A stretch of DNA of 64,000 bases from an uncultured Planctomycetota bacterium (lineage in GTDB: Bacteria; Planctomycetota; Planctomycetia; Isosphaerales; Isosphaeraceae): the NCBI GenBank assembly GCA_963737655.1, contig CAVTTN010000002.1, positions 2,496,001-2,560,000 on the forward strand. Reading direction: 5' to 3'. The notes beneath the pieces are model-generated. The model was not told the DNA's origin, searched no databases, and was given only the letters and a program-made list of their open reading frames with translations. Position numbers and translations under genes: made by a program. Below are positions 26,831 to 53,374 of the stretch, in pieces. Every line of letters begins with the position of its first letter. Within the stretch, counting starts at the first letter, position 1.

Positions 26831-28488
26831 GAGGTCGCTCGTCGGGCGGCGGTCGGCTCGTCCAGATCGGCGAGGATCACGCCCTCGCGGTCGATCTTCA
26901 CGTTGTATCGCCCCCGGATCGCCTCGTGCAAGAGACGCCGACGCGGGTCGTCGCCCATCGGCCAGAGATCGGCGAACGTCCGGGCGCCGCGATCGCGGTA
27001 ATACTCGACCAGGGCGAGGGGATCGGCCGCGTCGATCGTCCCGCCCCACTCGCCCGCCGCGCGGGCCTCGGAACGCTCGCCAACCTCCAGCCGGCATCCG
27101 CGACGATCGGCCAGGAACAGCAGGGCCTCGGGGGCGACGACGAGGTCGTCCGGGCCGGTCAACCGGTCGAGGAAGGCCGCGGCCCTCGGGCCGGCGGACC
27201 ATTGGGGGGGCGTCTGACCTCGAAGCGAGTCGCGAGACTGGACGAGGGCCAGCGCGACGAGCGCGACGAGCGGGAGGGCCTTCGTCAAGGAGCGAGGCGA
27301 GGCTCCTGGAACCCTCGCCACCGAAGCGGGGTTCGTGTTTGGCGTGGTCGAATCGAGGTTCTGGTAGGGTCCGCTATTGCGGACCTCTTCGCGACGAAGG
27401 AAATGGAAGAGGTCCGCAATAGCGGACCCTACAAAGACCGCCCTCGACCACGCGAAACGGGTACGAGCGTGGGAAAGTGGGGCGGCACGACCGATTGCCC
27501 AACCCGAGGCCACCCCCGCCGCGATCGGAGGAGCCAGCATCAACCAGTAATACTCGTGATGGATCTTCCCCGGCATCAGCAAGAACGCCCCGGCCCCCGA
27601 GATCAGCCACCATCGCCAGAGCCGATCGCCCCTCGACCGCCCGAACAGGTTGCCGACCGCCAGGATCAGGCCCAGGGGCGTGAAGGCCCGCCAGAACGCG
27701 ATTTTCGCGACCGTCGCCAGGGTTCCCGGCCTCAGCCACGCCATCGGCGAGACGGCCGAGGCCCAGAGGCCCGCGTTGTCGGCCGAGGCCCGCGAGCCTT
27801 TCCCCGAACGAAGCTCGATCGCGGCGAATCCGTACCAGAGCAGCGCCGGAATCAACGTCGCAAGGACGATCGCAAGCTTCCCCGGCCGTTTCGATCGCAC
27901 GATCGCCGCGAGGAGAGGCACGAGCACGAAGGCCGCCACCACCTTCACCGCCAGCCCCAGGGCCAGGAGCGACCAGGCCAGCGCGAGCCGCCATCGTCCG
28001 CCTTCGGCCTCGTGATCGTCCCACACTCGCAATCCCGCCACCACGAGGCCCATCATCAGCGGGTCGGGCTGGCAGGATCGGCCGTATTTCAGGGTCACCG
28101 GCAGCAGGGCGAACACGGCGACGGCGACGATCGCGAACCCCGGAGATCCTCGACGACGCGCCAGGCCGAACAGTCCCCAGGCGGCCAGGGCGATCGAAGC
28201 CGCCGAGAGCAGCCGCCCGCATCGGCCGATCGGCCAGCCGGTCCGGCTCCGAATCGACGCGATCCCCGCGGCATCGATCGGCGGCTCGACGAGGAACAGG
28301 TTCGGGAACGGCCCGGTGTCGAGCCGGGGACGGAGAAACCCCGAGCCCCGTTCGAGGTTCCGGGCCACCATCGCCGTCGGGACCTGCCGGCCGACGTAAC
28401 CGTCAACGATCGGCTGATCGGGCCACCTCGCCCCGATCGCGAAGACGCCGACGAACACCAGGGCGCCGATCCATCGCTCAGAAGGCAT
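26806..28488 (-). CDS. ArnT/PMT-like (GT-C) membrane glycosyltransferase containing an in-frame MITE
   Basis: RQVPTAMVARN, EPPI, GRLLS, QPDPL, VK and HHEYY motifs; many TMs. About 45 codons derive from 27331-27464. Confidence 0.78.
   Translation of the reverse strand: MPSERWIGALVFVGVFAIGARWPDQPIVDGYVGRQVPTAMVARNLERGSGFLRPRLDTGPFPNLFLVEPPIDAAGIASIRSRTGWPIGRCGRLLSAASIALAAWGLFGLARRRGSPGFAIVAVAVFALLPVTLKYGRSCQPDPLMMGLVVAGLRVWDDHEAEGGRWRLALAWSLLALGLAVKVVAAFVLVPLLAAIVRSKRPGKLAIVLATLIPALLWYGFAAIELRSGKGSRASADNAGLWASAVSPMAWLRPGTLATVAKIAFWRAFTPLGLILAVGNLFGRSRGDRLWRWWLISGAGAFLLMPGKIHHEYYWLMLAPPIAAGVASGWAIGRAAPLSHARTRFAWSRAVFVGSAIADLFHFLRREEVRNSGPYQNLDSTTPNTNPASVARVPGASPRSLTKALPLVALVALALVQSRDSLRGQTPPQWSAGPRAAAFLDRLTGPDDLVVAPEALLFLADRRGCRLEVGERSEARAAGEWGGTIDAADPLALVEYYRDRGARTFADLWPMGDDPRRRLLHEAIRGRYNVKIDREGVILADLDEPTAARRATSWRNAPRR
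27331..27464. mobile_element. 134-bp MITE-like element carrying a family D REP doublet
   Basis: Ends GTTCGTGTTT..AAACGGGTAC; core GTAGGGTCCGCTATTGCGGACC..GGTCCGCAATAGCGGACCCTAC. A homologue of the same length lies in opposite orientation at 48529-48662. Confidence 0.85.
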
Positions 28489-32291: not shown

Positions 32292-32484
32292 GGCTCATGA
32301 TCCCGGATTGGTGCTTGCTCAACGACTCGTTCCCACGCTCGGCGTGGGAATGCCGTCTTCGACGCTCCGCGTCCCCTTGGTTCGTCGGCGTCCGCAGGCA
32401 CGCGGAGCGTGCAAGACGGCATTCCCACGCCGAGCGTGGGAACGAGGGATATCCGACCTTATCACCAATCCGGACTCATGAGCC
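32292..32484. mobile_element. 193-bp MITE with 22-bp TIRs and 9-bp TSD, carrying a family F hairpin doublet
   Basis: TIR GGCTCATGA(TC/GT)CCGGATTGGTG; TSD TCCCTGGAT at 32283-32291 and 32485-32493; internal CTCGTTCCCACGCTCGGCGTGGGAATG..CATTCCCACGCCGAGCGTGGGAACGAG. Confidence 0.92.
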
Positions 32485-46231: not shown

Positions 46232-48352
46232 ATGCCGCCGACGATCGGACCCGTCCTCGCCCTGGGCCCCGAATTGACCCTGGCCAGCCCCCTCGGGGCG
46301 GCGGCCTGGGCCGTCCTCGCCGGAATCCCGGTCGGCATCGTCGCGCTGTACTTCCTCAAGCTCCGCCGGAGGCCCGTGCAGGTCGCCAGCACCCTGCTCT
46401 GGAGGCGGAGCCTGGAGGACCTCCACGTCAACAGCCTGTTCCAGAGGCTGAGGAAGAACCTCCTGCTGTTCCTCCAGCTCCTGGCGGTGTTCCTGGCGAT
46501 GTTCGCGCTGTCGGGCCTGAAGTTCAAGGGGTTGACCACCGCCGGCAGGCGGCTGGTCGTGGCCATCGACGAATCGGCGAGCATGGGGGCGACCGACGTG
46601 AGGCCCTCCCGCCTGGGGGACGCCAAGGCCCAGGCCCTGAAGCTGATCGACGGGATGAGCGGCGAGGACCTCGCCATGATCGTCGCCTTCTCCGACCGCG
46701 CCCGGGTCGTCTCCAACTATTCGAGCAACCGCGACCTCCTCCGCCGGAGGGTCCAGGAGATCGTCCCGACCGAGAGCACGACGAACCTCCGCGAGGCGCT
46801 CCAGGTCGTCGCCGGCCTGGCCAATCCCTCCTCCGACCGGGCCGCCCGCGAGGGCGTGGTGGCCACCGAGGCGATGGTCCCGCCCCACCTGACGATCTTC
46901 ACCGACGGCGGCTTCCCCGACGTCGAGGGCTTCTCCATCGGCACCATCGAGCCCGAGATCGTCATCGTCGGCCCCGCCCCGCCCCGCCCGGACGTGCCCC
47001 TCAAGCCGGGCCAGAAGCCGCCGCCGGCCCCCTCCGACAACGTCGCGATCCTCGCGCTCTCCTCGGCCCGCAACGAGGAGAAGCCCGACCAGTTCCAGGT
47101 CTTCGGCCGGGTGAAGAACTACCGGGCCGAGGCCGTGAAGACCGAGGCCCGCCTGATCCGCCACGACCCCAAGACCCCCGGCGACGCCGGCGCCCTGGTC
47201 GATGCCGTCGCCCTGTCGATCGACGGCCAGTCCGAGCAGTCCTTCAGCTTCAACCTCCAGGAAAACGGCCTGGACGAGCTGGAGGTCCGCATCGACCTGA
47301 AGGACTCGCTCGACCTGGACAATCGCGCCTTCACCGTCTTCGGCAACCCGAGGAAGGCGCAGGTCCTCCTGGTGGTCGGCCAGGACCGCTACCTGACCGA
47401 CACCCTGATGACCCCTGCGGCCGCCGAGATGGCCGACGTCGTCCGGCGGACGCCCGAGGAGGCGAAGGCGCCCGAGAGCCTCCGGGAGATCGGATCGGGC
47501 CGTTACGACCTGATCATCTACGACGGCGTGAGGCCCGACGCCCCTCCCGAGGCCAACGCCCTGTACTTCGGCGTCCTGCCGCCCGGCCCGGCCTATGAGA
47601 AGTCCAAGGCCCTGGCCGAACCCGTCATCATGGACTGGGACGTGTCGCACCCCTTGATGCAGTACATCCGCGACCTCGGCACGGTGGCGATCCGCAAGGC
47701 CGTCACGTGCGAGCCGCCCCCGGGATCGACGGTCCTGATCGAGGGGGACGGCGGCCCCCTGGCCTTCATCGCCCCTCGCAACGGCTTCGCCGACGCCGTG
47801 GTGGCCTTCGGCCTGATCGACGGCGCGGAATTCAACACCAACTGGCCCGTCCGCATCAGCTTCCCCCTGTTCCTCTACAACGCCCTCCGCTACCTGGGCA
47901 ACGCCCGGGACGTCGCCGGAGGGGGAGACGCCCACCTGCCCAACATGCCGGTGGTCCTCCGGGCCGACTCCACGGCCGAATTCCTCGACGTCTCCGGGCC
48001 CGACGGCAAGCTCCTCGATCGGATCAAGCGGACCCCCCAGGGCGCCTTCCTGTTCAACAAGGCCAAGTCCACGGGGATCTACCACGTGAAGTGGGGCAAG
48101 GACTCCGGCTCCAGCTTCAGCGTGAACCTCTTCGACGCGAGGGAGAGCGACCTCTCGACCCGGGGGCTGGCCCCCGAGGGCTCGACCGCCGAGGAGGTCG
48201 AGGCCGCGAAGATCAAGATCGGCTTCACCCCGGTCGCCGGCACCCGAGCCACCTCCACCGGCCTCCGCGACCTGTGGATCTACGTCGCCGCCGCCATGCT
48301 CGGCGTCGTCTTGCTGGAGTGGTATATCTACAACCGACGGGTCTACGTCTGA
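46232..48352 (+). CDS. BatA N-terminal domain plus vWA domain protein
   Basis: LYFLKLRRRPVQVASTLLW, DESASM, TDG, LDN, C-terminal TM LLEW. Confidence 0.9.
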   Translation: MPPTIGPVLALGPELTLASPLGAAAWAVLAGIPVGIVALYFLKLRRRPVQVASTLLWRRSLEDLHVNSLFQRLRKNLLLFLQLLAVFLAMFALSGLKFKGLTTAGRRLVVAIDESASMGATDVRPSRLGDAKAQALKLIDGMSGEDLAMIVAFSDRARVVSNYSSNRDLLRRRVQEIVPTESTTNLREALQVVAGLANPSSDRAAREGVVATEAMVPPHLTIFTDGGFPDVEGFSIGTIEPEIVIVGPAPPRPDVPLKPGQKPPPAPSDNVAILALSSARNEEKPDQFQVFGRVKNYRAEAVKTEARLIRHDPKTPGDAGALVDAVALSIDGQSEQSFSFNLQENGLDELEVRIDLKDSLDLDNRAFTVFGNPRKAQVLLVVGQDRYLTDTLMTPAAAEMADVVRRTPEEAKAPESLREIGSGRYDLIIYDGVRPDAPPEANALYFGVLPPGPAYEKSKALAEPVIMDWDVSHPLMQYIRDLGTVAIRKAVTCEPPPGSTVLIEGDGGPLAFIAPRNGFADAVVAFGLIDGAEFNTNWPVRISFPLFLYNALRYLGNARDVAGGGDAHLPNMPVVLRADSTAEFLDVSGPDGKLLDRIKRTPQGAFLFNKAKSTGIYHVKWGKDSGSSFSVNLFDARESDLSTRGLAPEGSTAEEVEAAKIKIGFTPVAGTRATSTGLRDLWIYVAAAMLGVVLLEWYIYNRRVYV

Positions 48353-48475
48353 GCCGGTCGGGATGGGGGAGATGGCGGGCATCCGAACCATGGCGTCGGA
48401 TTGCTCTGCAGGAAACCCCGGTGATGGAGAGGAATCCAGTAGGTCCGACTTCAGTCGGGCCTAAAAGAATCCCTT

Positions 48476-48718
48476 GGCTCATGAGTCCGGATTGGTGGTC
48501 ACGTCGGATTTCCCTCGTTCCCACGCGCGTTCGTGTTTAACGGCTGAGAAGGCGGTATTTGTAGGGTCCGCGATTGCGGACCTCTTCGATTTCCCTTCGT
48601 CGCGAAGAGGTCCGCAATCGCGGACCCTACAAAAACCGCGATTCGAGGCGCTAAACACGTACCCACGCGCCGCGTGGGAACGAGTCGTTGAGCAAGCACC
48701 AACGCGGGATCATGAGCC
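48476..48718. mobile_element. MITE (layer 3), inverted and internally collapsed sister of 32292-32484, 8-bp TSD
   Basis: GGCTCATGAG..ATCATGAGCC ends; AATCCCTT at 48468-48475 and 48719-48726. Confidence 0.9.
48529..48662. mobile_element. 134-bp MITE (layer 4) carrying a family D REP doublet, 8-bp TSD
   Basis: GTTCGTGTTT..AAACACGTAC ends; CCACGCGC at 48521-48528 and 48663-48670. Confidence 0.9.
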
Positions 48719-48862
48719 AATCCCTTTTTTCGTAGGCCCGACTGAAGTCGGACCTACTGGATTCCTTTCCATCACCGGGGTTTTCTACAAAGCAGTGTCG
48801 GATCATGTTTTCCGTAGCGTAACATGATCCGACACTTTTTTCGGATGCCCGCCATTTCCCTC

Positions 48863-48883
48863 GGTGCATCCCATGCACCCTAC
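48863..48883 (-). repeat. family A GTAG REP, solo
   Basis: Minus strand GTAGGGTGCATGGGATGCACC; contains the TAG stop of the heme protein. Confidence 0.85.
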
Positions 48884-51800
48884 TTCCGCGAGATCAGGTA
48901 CGCGACGAGGTCCAGGAAGTCCTTCTCGGCGATCTTGTCGGCGAAGTCGGCCGGCATGGGGGAGATTGGCGAGACCTTCTTCTGCTCGACGTCCGCCCTG
49001 GCGATCCGCTGCTCCTTGCCCTGCGAGTCGGCCAGGACGAGGACGTCTCCGTCCTCCCGGAGCAGGAGGCCGGAGAGGGTCCGGCCGTCGGTCAGGGCGA
49101 GCGTGGTCATTCGGAACGCCTGGTCGATGTTGCGGTTCGGGTCGAGGACGTCCTCCATCAGCCGATCCGGCCCCCGGACGCCGATCCCGTCGAGCTGAGG
49201 GCCGACCTTCGCCCCTTGCCCCCCGATCTGATGGCACGCGGCGCAATTCTTGGTGAAGACCTCGGCGCCTCGGGCTGGATCGCTCGGCGTCGCGGCGAAC
49301 GAGGCCCGCCGCCTGTCGATCAGCTCGGCGATCTTCGCGTCGGCCGGCACCAGGCCGGCCGTCAGGGCCTCGACCTTCTTGTTCACGTCGGGGACGCCCG
49401 ATTGATCGAGGAACACGCGGACGGACCGTTCCTGGAGGAGCCGGGCCGACGCCTTGCCCTCGCCCACGGCCTTCAATAACGCCTCGGCCCCGGGCCGTCC
49501 GGCGGCCAGGGCCGCCGCGATCCCCGTTTGCAGGCGCCCGGGCACGAGCGGGAGGGCCTCGACGAGCTTCGCCCGGCCCGAGTCCTGGTTGGTCTTGGCC
49601 AGGGCCGCCGCGCCCGCCTCGCGGACGCCCATCGGCGCGGAGGGATCGACGAGGATCGGCCCGAGGACGTCGGCGGTGCCCCTCGGATCAATGGCCGAAA
49701 GCGCGTTCATGACGGCGATCCTCGACCCTTCGGCCGCCTTCGCCGATCTCGCGACCTCGACCAGCGCCTCGCGCCTCTCGTTCAGGCCCATCGAGCCGAC
49801 GAGCTCGGCCCCGAGCCCGACTCCGCCCGGATCGGCCCCGCTCAAGAGCTTCGCGGTGACCTCCCCGGCCCACTCGCGGGCCGGTCCCGAGAGGCCCGCC
49901 CCCCGGTCCTGCAAGCCCTGGTGGACGGCCTTGAGCAGCGCCGCCTGCAAGCCGAGGTCCGCCGGATCCTTCTGCCGGGCGAACGCCACGACCTCGGGCA
50001 CGAGCGACAATTCGACTCGCCGGGCCGCGTGGAGGAGGTGCTCGATCAGCGGGTCTCGCCCCTCGGGATACTTGCCGACGAACTCCAGGACGAATCGCCC
50101 GGAGTCGGCGCCCGGATCGCCCAGCGCGACGTCGGCCAGGTCGCGGAAATCGGCCTCGGAATAGGCGGGATCGCCGATCCCCGGCCACTTCGCGGCCGAG
50201 AGGAACTGATCGCGGAGCGCCATCCGAACCGCATGGACGAGCTGGGCGTCCTCGGCCGGGGCCGCATGGCGGGCATCGAGCAGCACCCGGACGTTCGCGG
50301 CCGACCGATGGCGTCCCAGGGCCTGGGTTGCCGCTCGGCGGACGAACGCATCGTCATCCTTGAGACGATCGCGGACGAGACCGGCGAATTCCTCCGAAAT
50401 CCTCGGCTTTTCCGCGATGATCCGCATCGAATGGATCCGGACCGTTCGATCCTCGGCCTTGGTCGCGTCCTTCAAGGCCGAGTCGTCCAGGGCGCCGAGG
50501 CGTTCCAGGGCCCAGAGGGCATGGACCCGGCTCGGGGCCACGGCTCCCGGGACGACGAGCCCTTTGAGACGGTCGATCGCGTGGGAACCCCCTCGGGCGA
50601 CGAGTTGGTTCGTCGCCAGGGTGCGGACGGTGAGGTTGGGGGAACCCAGCGCGGCGATCAGTTGCGGAATCGTGGCCTCGGCGAAGTTCGGCAGGGGAGG
50701 AATGGGCGCCTTGCCGTCCTCCCCCGTGTAGACGATCCGCCAGATCCGCCCTCGTTCGCGGTCCCGGCCGGGATGGGTCAGCGGGACCTCATAATGGCCG
50801 ATGATCTTGTTGTAGAAGTCGGCCACATACAGGGCCCCGTCGGGCCCGAGCTTCAGGTCGACCGGGCGGAACCAGCGGTCGTCGCTCGACAGGAAGTCGG
50901 GCGTGAGGTTGCCCCGGGGGGTCGAGCCGTGCCAGGTCACCGTGTCGTGGTTGATCCTGTTGGTCACGACGTTGCCGATGAAGATCGTCCCCCGCCACTC
51001 CTTCGGGAACAGGTCGGCCTGGTAGTCGACGACCCCGGAGATCGCCGTCGATCCGTGGAGGTGCGAGACCATCTCCGGGCCGAACCCCAGCCCGTCGCTC
51101 AGCTTGCCGAAGCTGGGATAATAGGCCCCTTTCAAGAGCATGTAAACCGGCTTGCTGTGGCAATCGGCCGAATAGAGGTTCCCCAGCGGGTCGAAGCAGA
51201 GGCCGAACGGGTTGACCTGGCCGTGGGTGAACTGCTCGGCGTGGGAGCCGTCGGGGCGGAAGCGATAGGTATTGCCCGACTGCATGGCGACGACCTGATT
51301 GTCCTTCCCGCGCACTTCGGACGAGTTGTTGAACCCGTGGCAGGCGTAGAGCCAGCCGTCGAAGCCCCAGGTGAAGGCGTTGGTCATCCCGTGGGTGTCC
51401 CGGGAGCCGAACGTCGCGTAGGCGACCTCGCGAGAGTCCGCCTTGCCGTCGCCGTCGCGATCGACGAAGCGATCGACGCTGGGGATCGAGTGGACGAGGG
51501 CCTCTCGGCCTCCGGGCAGGGGCATCAGGCCGATCGGGATGTTCAGGCCGTCGGCGAACGTGGTGATCTTGCGGGCCTTGCCGTCGGGGCCGAAGTCTTC
51601 GAGGACCTTCACGGCGTCCCGGGGCTTCGTGCCCTCCTTCGCGGGGAACGGGTACTCGATGGTCTCGGTGACCCAGAGCCGCCCCCGGTCGTCGAAGGCA
51701 ATGTTCATGGGTTTGTGGATGTCCGGGTCGCTGGCGACGAGCTGGACCTCGAACCCGGGAGGGACGTGGAACCCGGCCTTCTCGGAGGCGGGGTCGCGGG

Positions 51801-51900
51801 GCCCGGTCGGCGCCACGAGGTCGGCCGGTTCCTGGGCGACTCCGAAGGACGAAGTCAGGGACACCACGGCGGCGAGGGCGAGGGAGAGGGGGAGTCGCAT
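48880..51900 (-). CDS. PVC-type membrane-bound dehydrogenase-like heme c protein (beta-propeller + HEAT repeats + cytochrome c)
   Basis: Signal peptide; VPPGFEVQLVASDP, FDDRGRLWV, WGFDGWLY, FRPVD..GPDGALYVAD; HEAT repeats; CAACH..VGPQL..SPMP. Confidence 0.92.
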   Translation of the reverse strand: MRLPLSLALAAVVSLTSSFGVAQEPADLVAPTGPRDPASEKAGFHVPPGFEVQLVASDPDIHKPMNIAFDDRGRLWVTETIEYPFPAKEGTKPRDAVKVLEDFGPDGKARKITTFADGLNIPIGLMPLPGGREALVHSIPSVDRFVDRDGDGKADSREVAYATFGSRDTHGMTNAFTWGFDGWLYACHGFNNSSEVRGKDNQVVAMQSGNTYRFRPDGSHAEQFTHGQVNPFGLCFDPLGNLYSADCHSKPVYMLLKGAYYPSFGKLSDGLGFGPEMVSHLHGSTAISGVVDYQADLFPKEWRGTIFIGNVVTNRINHDTVTWHGSTPRGNLTPDFLSSDDRWFRPVDLKLGPDGALYVADFYNKIIGHYEVPLTHPGRDRERGRIWRIVYTGEDGKAPIPPLPNFAEATIPQLIAALGSPNLTVRTLATNQLVARGGSHAIDRLKGLVVPGAVAPSRVHALWALERLGALDDSALKDATKAEDRTVRIHSMRIIAEKPRISEEFAGLVRDRLKDDDAFVRRAATQALGRHRSAANVRVLLDARHAAPAEDAQLVHAVRMALRDQFLSAAKWPGIGDPAYSEADFRDLADVALGDPGADSGRFVLEFVGKYPEGRDPLIEHLLHAARRVELSLVPEVVAFARQKDPADLGLQAALLKAVHQGLQDRGAGLSGPAREWAGEVTAKLLSGADPGGVGLGAELVGSMGLNERREALVEVARSAKAAEGSRIAVMNALSAIDPRGTADVLGPILVDPSAPMGVREAGAAALAKTNQDSGRAKLVEALPLVPGRLQTGIAAALAAGRPGAEALLKAVGEGKASARLLQERSVRVFLDQSGVPDVNKKVEALTAGLVPADAKIAELIDRRRASFAATPSDPARGAEVFTKNCAACHQIGGQGAKVGPQLDGIGVRGPDRLMEDVLDPNRNIDQAFRMTTLALTDGRTLSGLLLREDGDVLVLADSQGKEQRIARADVEQKKVSPISPMPADFADKIAEKDFLDLVAYLISRK

Positions 51901-52101
51901 CGATCCTCCGCGAAGGCGGCATGAGGGCGTTACGTCGGCGGGCGGGGCGACCGGCGAGGGATTCCCCTCAAGATAAAGGTTCGGCGACGGCGGTTCCACC
52001 CCGGAGGGTTGTCGGGAAGCCGGACCGGGGCTAAAACAGGTCGAGAGGCCGTCCGGCCCGAGAGTCCCTTTCGCCCCCCCGATTCGCCGGGACCGACGAC
52101 C

Positions 52102-53374
52102 ATGCATCCGCCCACGACCGAGCCGGCCGATCGGCTGAATCCCGGACTTGCCTCGCGGTTCGAGGGGGTCCGAAGGATGACCGTCTCGCTCTGCGAGACG
52201 CTCGAACCGGAGGATTTCGTCGTCCAGTCGATGCCCGACGCCAGCCCGGCCAAGTGGCACCTGGCCCATACCACCTGGTTTTTCGAGACGTTCGTGCTGG
52301 CCCGGGGAATCCCCGGATATCGCCACGCGCTACCCGATGCGAATTACCTGTTCAACTCCTATTACAACGCCGTCGGCGAGAGGATCGCCCGGGACCGTCG
52401 GGGGATGCTCACCCGGCCGACGATCGCCGAGGTCTTTCGCTATCGGAGGGCCGTGGACGACCGGATGGGGGAATTCCTCGCCGGCCGGGCGTCGGGATCG
52501 TTCGCGGAGGTGGTCGAGCCTCGGCCTGAACCACGAGCAGCAGCACCAGGAATTGCTCCTGACCGACCTGAAGCACGCCCTCGGCCTGAACCCGCTCCAC
52601 CCGACGTTCCGCCCCTTGGCCGAGGCCCCGACGAGGGCGGTCGGCGGCCCGTCCTGGATCGGCGCCGGGGAGGGCGTCCGCGAGATCGGCCACGCCGGGG
52701 AGGGCTTCGCGTTCGACAACGAGGGGCCTCGCCACCGCGTGTTCGTCGAGGAGCACGAGATCCTCTCGCATCCCGTGACCAACGGCGAATACCTCGCCTT
52801 CCTCGACGACGGCGGTTACGACCGGCCCGAATTCTGGCTGTCCGACGGCTGGGCGGCGAGGACGGCCGGGGGCTGGAAGGCGCCTCTGTACTGGAAGGGG
52901 GGCGACGGCCATCACTCGACGTTCACCCTCGGCGGGATGAAGCCGGTGGACGAGTCCGAGCCGGTCGTCCACGTGAGCTTCTACGAGGCCGACGCCTTCG
53001 CTCGATGGGCCGGGGCGAGGCTGCCGACCGAGGCCGAATGGGAGCTCGCCGCCCGGGACGTGCCGATCGAGGGGAACTTCCTCGAATCGGGCCGCTTGCA
53101 CCCGTCGGCCCCGTCCTCGGCCCCGGCGGGGCGTCCGTCGGGCCTGTTCGGCGACGTCTGGGAATGGACCGCCAGCCCGTATGTCGCCTATCCGCGCTAC
53201 CGACCGGCCTCGGGCGCCCTGGGCGAATACAACGGGAAGTTCATGTGCAACCAGATGGTCCTGAGGGGCGGCTCCTGCGCGACCCCGGCCAGCCACGTCC
53301 GGCCGACGTACCGCAACTTCTTCCCCCCCGGGGCCCGCTGGCAGTTCTCGGGGATTCGCCTGGCGAGATCGTAG
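52102..53374 (+). CDS. egtB: ergothioneine biosynthesis sulfoxide synthase (+1 frameshift at ~52520)
   Basis: SPAKWHLAHTTWFFE, FNSYY, GLNHEQQHQEL (after removing one C), FAFDNE, RLPTEAEWE, VWEW, YNGKFM, YRNFF. Confidence 0.92.

Follow-up and report, generated by a model that had tools for sequence, protein, structure and literature searches.

We found that an intergenic gap in a planctomycete genome holds three MITEs, one inside the other (M1 in M2 in M3), within a host hairpin repeat. The three are unrelated, with IS66-type, IS1595-type and IS5-type ends respectively; we consider it probable that they were moved in trans by three DDE transposases, and that they piled up as each supplied the target of the next. 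The IS66 clade to which the partner of M1 belongs inserts mostly in a fixed register to the dyad over many hairpin sequences, and three other single-ORF IS66 elements tested do not. The window, that is, the whole stretch of DNA that was analysed (64,000 nt; G000:C2:2496001-2560000), comes from a genome of 7.63 Mb in 3 contigs, with 69% GC and 88% completeness; the PVC-type heme-binding gene next to the nest, and the labels that most close relatives of the IS66 transposase bear, point to a planctomycete. The features of the window are listed in Table 1.

Table 1. Features of the nest and its surroundings, in positions of the window.
Feature	Position	Strand	Remarks
Left flanking gene, BatA and VWA domain protein (706 aa)	46232..48352	+	PF07584 and PF13519 over cut-off
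Outer 21-bp inverted repeat, left arm	48367..48387		extension private to this host hairpin copy; not a MITE end
M3 TSD, left copy, 9 bp	48393..48401	+	right copy 48795-48803, one mismatch; start of host hairpin arm
M3, MITE with IS5-type 17-bp ends	48402..48794		about 141 bp when empty; core is a GTAG REP3 doublet; 67 two-ended copies
REP3 left unit, GTAG-headed	48439..48463	+	REP3 also flanks RAYT-like gene L007
M2 TSD, left copy, 8 bp, perfect	48468..48475	+	right copy 48719-48726; in A/T-rich spacer of REP3 doublet
M2, MITE with IS1595-type ends	48476..48718		101 bp when empty, 193 bp with full REP2 doublet; 10 two-ended copies
REP2 hairpin, left part	48514..48528	+	ends in left M1 TSD; right part 48663-48684
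M1, 134-bp MITE with IS66-type 14-bp ends	48529..48662		15 two-ended copies and one interrupted
REP1 doublet, M1 core	48561..48630		GTAG-headed units 48561-48582 and 48609-48630; also armless elsewhere
REP3 right unit	48733..48757	-	
Host hairpin (H family doublet)	48795..48835		first 9 bp are the right M3 TSD
Outer 21-bp inverted repeat, right arm	48840..48860		pairs with left arm
Right flanking ORF, PVC-type heme-binding CxxCH protein	48880..52326	-	convergent; TIGR02604 and TIGR02603 over cut-off
Second M1 copy in window	27331..27464	-	adjoins REP2-like stretch; TSD decayed, 4 of 8 mismatches
Second M2 copy in window	32292..32484	-	193 bp, full REP2 doublet, perfect 9-bp TSD

The nest begins just past the end of the BatA/VWA gene. 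The 511-nt stretch that holds it has a folding z of -23.5, and queries with M1, M2 and M3 matched 44, 20 and 95 loci of the genome by BLAST, REP-only matches included; such folding together with matches at many loci indicates that the nest is not a product of chance. A promoter scan gave no hits and a terminator scan one, both at chance level. An identity as miRNA was rejected, as the three Rfam matches were weak and all far under their gathering scores. Partly nested alleles of this junction, which the earlier note had proposed to look for in relatives, did not turn up: both flanking genes are present at 5 of 11 relative loci, with unrelated gaps of 24-332 bp that hold none of these elements. 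At the same junction in three congeners the gaps are 332, 24 and 87 bp, M1, M2 and M3 are absent, and no partly nested allele was found.

The earlier note had read the gap as a four-layer nest of MITEs in which three different non-autonomous elements with REP-type cores lie inside one another, each with one TSD. These three are borne out by their ends, by TSDs of 8, 8 and 9 bp and by their families of copies, but the fourth and outermost layer is a host hairpin repeat and not a MITE: no further copy of its 21-bp outer inverted repeat was found in the genome, no TSD surrounds it apart from two chance 4-mers, and its core is one of a dispersed family of about 23 hairpin doublets. Removal of the innermost layer together with one copy of the identical 8-mers at its edges restores the REP2 hairpin, as had been claimed, and the bounds given for the second layer are exact; without M1, this layer matches four intact 100-101-bp copies at 90-94%, and a congener (L425) has a 102-bp M2 form with an intact REP2 hairpin. 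The third layer is a genuine element, but its ends are TGCTC...GAGCA at 48402-48794 rather than at 48400-48796, and the 5-bp TSD once assigned to it is only the inner five bases of a 9-mer.

This length follows from the family: both arms of M3 are present at 67 of the 95 BLAST loci, and the only peak of direct repeats around these two-ended copies is at 9 bp, where 15 are perfect and 34 have no more than one mismatch; none is perfect at 5, 6, 7 or 8 bp. For M1, whose TSD copies in the nest (48521-48528 and 48663-48670) are perfect, mean identity is 0.62 at a length of 8 bp and 0.27-0.38 at other lengths; three of 15 copies have a perfect TSD and five have at most one mismatch. Both TSD copies in the nest share a loop base that is absent from all 32 intact REP2 loops (both genome strands counted), a private base of the kind that a true duplication predicts. 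Among the ten two-ended M2 copies, eight have a TSD with at most one mismatch (six of 8 bp and two of 9 bp). The copies of the two inner layers that had been cited from elsewhere in the window both exist with the right ends, although at the M1 copy the TSD no longer matches well (Table 1).

Since the TSDs are nested, the order of insertion at this locus is host hairpin, M3, M2 and finally M1, as the earlier note had it. The order is readable at the nest only and does not extend to the families. In the genome, M1 lies inside M3 at three loci (one of them a 29-bp remnant) and inside M2 at two, while M2 lies inside M3 at four and inside M1 at one; as their TSDs and orientations differ, these nestings are mostly separate events. 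At C2:4224331-4224774 the nesting is reciprocal (M2>M1>M2), which indicates that the periods of activity of M1 and M2 overlapped and refutes a family-wide order. Median pairwise identities (M1 0.74, M3 0.76, M2 arms 0.92) give no outer-to-inner order either. M3 within M1 or M2 is absent from the genome, where only 0.19 such cases are expected, so that this comparison has no power. A second, truncated nest at C2:4317276 comprises a host hairpin arm, an M3-type end with a REP1-like start, and M2. At C2:7475026-7475369 an M3 with a truncated M2 inside is followed by a duplicated left part of M3, which resembles an adjacent rearrangement.

Every layer being a multi-copy repeat, it could be asked whether the nest was created in assembly by joining copies of abundant repeats. 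We hold this to be highly improbable, as the layers differ from their nearest copies (91%, 96% and 86% identity), a private base is common to the perfect TSDs, the same pairings occur at other loci with other TSDs and orientations, and the chromosome is a single 7.6-Mb contig.

Each MITE has a palindromic core of its own, REP1 in M1, REP2 in M2 and REP3 in M3. REP1 and REP3 are GTAG-headed palindromes in inverted doublets and are REPIN-like, REP2 has no GTAG head, and all three also occur free-standing without MITE arms. Armless doublets of this kind, and a RAYT-like gene (L007) that has inverted REP3 on its flanks, passes PF01797 and scores 74.9 bits against NF047646 (cut-off 80), would fit a reading of the elements as REPINs that RAYT tyrosine transposases moved together with some flanking DNA, now seen as the arms. 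That reading is hardly credible, however, given that the termini of the arms are those of DDE insertion sequences, that the arms are bounded by family-typical TSDs, and that the same IS66 ends enclose other cores in other genomes. No cognate RAYT for REP1 or REP2 was found, none of the seven Y1 loci in the 88%-complete genome being flanked by them; the host hairpin motif is likewise at none of these seven, and stands upstream of a Y1 gene at one of eight relative loci (L212).

We regard the ends as the mobile unit and the REP cores as cargo that is probably dispensable for mobility, because IS66 and IS1595 ends carry other cores and core-less forms exist. IS66 ends identical to those of M1 enclose other cores in four genomes (G016, G135, G024 and G045), and IS1595-type ends enclose another REP in G077. 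A 51-bp M1 in the genome under study (G000) and a 54-bp M2-type form in G002 are REP-less or nearly so, both with direct repeats. RAYT activity may have been the source of the first spread of the REP cores.

Several further repeats were seen alongside these. G016 has about 100 copies (L130-L160, L170-L204) of a 157-bp MITE with the IS66 ends of M1 and a different GTAG doublet core, and an IS66-ended MITE in G135 (L162) has a REP1-like core. A 1.48-kb DDE_Tnp_1 element (C2:896838, 3532409 and 3939597) has 11-12-bp duplications, two of its copies being at the same position in one GTAG-headed REP family. Long repeats with attC-like ends (C2:284000-290000, 1672900-1681700, 1970100-1977900, 6778800-6791600 and others) suggest integron cassette arrays.

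Shared ends and TSD lengths make it likely that M1, M2 and M3 were mobilised in trans by partner transposases. End-pattern searches over 121 family-level genomes gave full-length partners for all three. The partner of M1 is a single-ORF IS66 element of about 1.49 kb with the 14-bp ends of M1 and perfect 8-bp TSDs (L090, L095; relatives); its transposase scores 223.6 bits against NF033517 (cut-off 180) and matches PF03050, which assigns it to the IS66 family, and on its single ORF, 8-bp TSD and GT...AC ends we place it in the ISBst12 group. The partner of M3 is an IS5 element of 971-973 bp with identical 17-bp ends in G108 and G085; one copy (L055) scores 149.9 bits against NF033579 (cut-off 140), as expected of the IS5 family, and a frameshifted copy (L036) scores 102.5, below the cut-off.

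The partner of M2 is a two-frame IS1595 element of 1040-1051 bp in relatives, which starts with GGCTCATG and has TSDs of 8-9 bp. Its two overlapping frames contain a zinc ribbon (PF12760, 27.9 bits, cut-off 25.4) and an ISXO2-like DDE domain (PF12762, 58.4 bits, cut-off 27); against NF033547 the two frames, scored separately, reach 27.3 and 63.8 (cut-off 75). The link between M2 and IS1595 is somewhat weaker than the other two, with a shorter shared end of 8-16 bp. ISL3, a parent of M2 that had been guessed from its GGCTC ends, was rejected, as PF01610 has no match in the genome and the partner is IS1595. Two IS1595-type elements with M2-like left ends (L075 in G136 and L062 in G064) are interrupted by an IS66-like and another transposase ORF, on translations judged by eye.

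In the 88%-complete genome itself a paired-end search gave no convincing autonomous partners. The IS5 partner is present as a 52-aa fragment only, IS1595 as one distant match (28%), and IS66 as a copy of 79% identity whose left end is degenerate and whose start is broken by the insertion of a further repeat. A REP3 doublet is also carried by a fourth element, which has different ends (GAGGCTATCCGG) and two matching copies (C2:234340 and C2:4307075); one of these interrupts the IS66-clade transposase gene of the genome at its beginning.

The earlier note had further proposed that all three elements are directed to hairpins, each landing in the loop or stem of its predecessor, so that the nest would record the order in which the families were active. 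Compared with intergenic DNA, as defined by a crude gene finder, inverted repeats with a stem score of at least 10 are indeed enriched at the sites of all three (M3 8 of 34, M1 3 of 5, M2 4 of 8; 5% of 600 intergenic controls). For M3, however, 26 of the 34 sites lack a strong stem, none of 37 lies at a hairpin apex, and the sites within hairpins are predicted by a sequence motif. This motif, a symmetric A-tract, GG, the 9-bp TSD, CC and a T-tract, was built from 28 non-hairpin sites; compared with intergenic DNA, none of the nine host-hairpin sites scores below the 99.75th percentile on it, the site in the window being the weakest, and at each of them the observed register ranks fourth or better among 112; the leave-one-out median is 99.6. 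The duplications of M2 and its IS1595 partners are preceded by AA and followed by TT (11 sites; spacing AA-N8/9-TT), and the partners use such sites outside hairpins. The order that the nest was to record is contradicted by the reciprocal nest and by family divergences that do not follow it. Hairpin direction of all three elements is thus a very unlikely account, and only for IS66-type M1 does the proposal stand.

Of the 15 M2 copies, four are in an M3 spacer, whereas such spacers account for 0.7% of intergenic DNA (p = 3e-6) and for 5.7% of motif sites (p = 0.009); the excess over a crude A/T motif may reflect a further preference. At nine of the 67 M3 copies, inverted-repeat flanks replace the TSD (C2:293018, 819319, 1700889, 1720896, 3172808, 3236309, 3406046, 4903027 and 6360688), and L200 in G016 is similar. 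At such copies the DNA separating two symmetric target sites in a host hairpin would seem to have been lost, by adjacent deletion, by double insertion and recombination, or by insertion across a folded stem.

In the IS66 clade, most sites share one position relative to a palindrome. The centre of the M1 TSD in the nest is 3.5 nt from the REP2 dyad, and an autonomous IS66 element in G053 (L090) lies in a REP2 hairpin in an identical register. In the discovery set, 17 of 29 sites are near a hairpin apex, compared with 49 of 1500 intergenic controls, and 15 of 19 strong hairpins have an offset of 3 or 3.5 nt. We then held the register fixed and applied it to 35 further loci of G016, of which 17 had a TSD, 11 had no readable TSD and seven had no end pair. 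An offset of 2.5-4 nt was found at 11 of the 17 TSD-bearing sites and at 3 of 505 local controls; where the hairpin was strong, the register was seen at 11 of 13 sites and at 3 of 35 controls. Public genomes and metagenomes gave 120 loci of autonomous copies, but only 13 unique sites had a TSD and both ends, and three of these repeat discovery sites (L237, L238 and L242); nine of the ten new sites have a stem score of at least 6 at the register, and the tenth scores 5.

Pooled over the clade, the palindrome centre is 2.5-3.5 nt from the TSD centre at 32 of 50 sites and at 29 of 1500 controls, a difference whose p-values are overstated, as sites from a single MITE family in G016 and from repeat families that recur are not independent; the 23 distinct hairpin sequence clusters among the 32 sites, with 25-79% GC and loops of 1-6 nt, are the fairer count. 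The other 18 sites are off register, and no offset outside 2.5-3.5 nt exceeds 4%. Where this could be checked, the hairpins predate the insertions, as REP2 and REP3 hairpins also exist empty. Two IS66-type MITEs in G016 (L185 and L187) are flanked by duplications of about 14 bp that cover the two registers lying symmetrically about the hairpin dyad. In three further single-ORF IS66 elements (24-29% identity to the clade), the register is seen at 0 of 13, 0 of 3 and 0 of 7 sites, a total of 0 of 23 (p = 5e-8); 34 loci had been taken, 11 of which gave no ends. When the clade transposase is aligned with two IS66 proteins that do not target hairpins (24-29% identity), no extra domain is obvious.

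The register could also arise without recognition of folded DNA, from a short, degenerate sequence preference that is common in the tips of GC-rich hairpins, combined with survival in harmless intergenic repeats. The sequence logo is weak but, when oriented, has C in 66% at -1 and G in 62% at +9 around the TSD, a mild bias that dyad pairing would equally produce, and 15 of 16 M1 copies are intergenic. Survival is nevertheless unable to fix a register such as that of the strong hairpins in G016, the offset is no different in A/T-rich hairpins (L301 and L329), and the IS66 copies in GC-rich G284 are those with 0 of 7. We therefore judge sequence preference with survival to be an unlikely source of the register, and it is likely, from the comparison of sites, that the transposase of the M1 clade recognises a folded DNA hairpin and not a sequence. 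The likely target is an extruded hairpin, because in plain duplex DNA a palindrome is unreadable without its sequence.

We propose the following course of events for the nest. The IS5 transposase of M3 would read the symmetric A-tract-GG-N9-CC-T-tract motif present in the host hairpin arms. In a genome of 69% GC, the A/T-rich REP3 spacer provides the AA-N8/9-TT that the IS1595 transposase of M2 would prefer. The IS66-clade transposase of M1 would take the REP2 tip as an extruded hairpin, in a cruciform or in single-stranded DNA at a fork. The attack of DDE transposases is usually 5' staggered. With such an attack, one strand would be cut in the loop, at about 1 nt from the dyad, and the opposite strand in the stem, at a depth of about 7 nt, an asymmetry that would fit a hairpin of one strand better than a symmetric dimer on duplex DNA. 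The REP cores would turn each MITE into a landing site for later arrivals. As each layer would supply the preferred target of the next element, the nest needs no special process.

For the single-ORF IS66 clade as a whole, we lean, if only slightly, towards a structure-guided DDE transposase that would integrate with base-pair precision into extruded hairpins almost regardless of their sequence, cutting once in the loop and once about 7 nt into the stem; REPs, terminators and MITEs would be its safe harbours, and REP-loaded MITEs would be fresh targets.

Insertion of IS elements into REPs, REPINs, GTAG repeats, repeats inside palindromes and single-ORF IS66 elements are all established knowledge. 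REPs are targeted by IS1397, ISKpn1 and ISPsy8 (IS3), IS621, ISPpu9/10 and ISPa11 (IS110), and ISRm22 (IS4) (Tobes and Pareja 2006, PMC1525189), and members of IS4, IS5, IS256, IS3 and IS110 are REP-associated (PMC1525189, PMC3184786). The M1 clade resembles these in its fixed position within palindromic repeats, ISPsy8 being inserted at the symmetry axis of a REP hairpin (PMC1525189). It differs in that REP-targeting elements are, in the pertinent passages of that paper, described with one REP family per element, whereas the clade uses at least 23 hairpins, about 3 nt off the dyad; the term IS66 is absent from the main text of PMC1525189. With the ISBst12 group, e.g. ISDge4, the clade shares one ORF of about 450-480 aa, GT...AC ends of about 14 bp and an 8-bp direct repeat (PMC12898284), but the passages on this group in PMC12898284 describe no hairpin targeting, and the best-ranked plasmid relatives of the clade transposase are less than 30% identical. 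IS66 transposition is described as poorly characterised (PMC12898284). We found no report of hairpin or palindrome targeting by IS66 in the open full-text literature, a body of text that comprises neither ISfinder nor the main IS66 family papers, and excerpts of PMC2266710 and PMC8024623 contain nothing on it. We therefore consider fixed-register, sequence-independent targeting by an IS66 clade to be provisionally new.

The three elements are similar to trans-mobilised bacterial MITEs (Nezha, RUP, Correia/NEMIS, ERIC), which are non-coding, 70-300 bp long and intergenic, with IS-shared TIRs, TSDs and strong hairpins (PMC3184786, PMC3733652). M1, M2 and M3 have IS-shared TIRs (14 bp, 8-16 bp and 17 bp), a constant TSD length, sizes of 101-193 bp, no transposase and multiple copies. 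Unlike in those MITEs, three IS families here each give a REP-cored MITE, and mutual nesting is repeated and reciprocal. REP1 and REP3, as GTAG-headed inverted doublets, and REP3 at a RAYT-like gene, are reminiscent of REPINs/RAYTs and GTAG repeats (Bertels and Rainey 2011, PMC3116915); GTAG repeats occur in Planctomycetes, and some GTAG/CGTC repeats lie within larger palindromes (Di Nocera 2013, PMC3733652). In contrast to REPINs, most REP3 doublets are inside IS5 ends (67 of 95 loci), REP2 is without a GTAG head, and REP1 and REP2 have no cognate RAYT among the seven Y1 loci.

The nest alone is an unusually clean case of known things, namely MITEs, REPs and IS insertion into palindromes. If true, a DDE transposase with a fixed register that chooses its target by shape would offer, in a single protein, a compact system for studying how integrases sense cruciform or single-stranded hairpin DNA. 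It would possibly also be a tool for which any designed hairpin could be the landing site, and insertions of the clade would be natural markers of hairpin extrusion sites in vivo. Nests of repeats would then be explained by every element carrying the target of the next.
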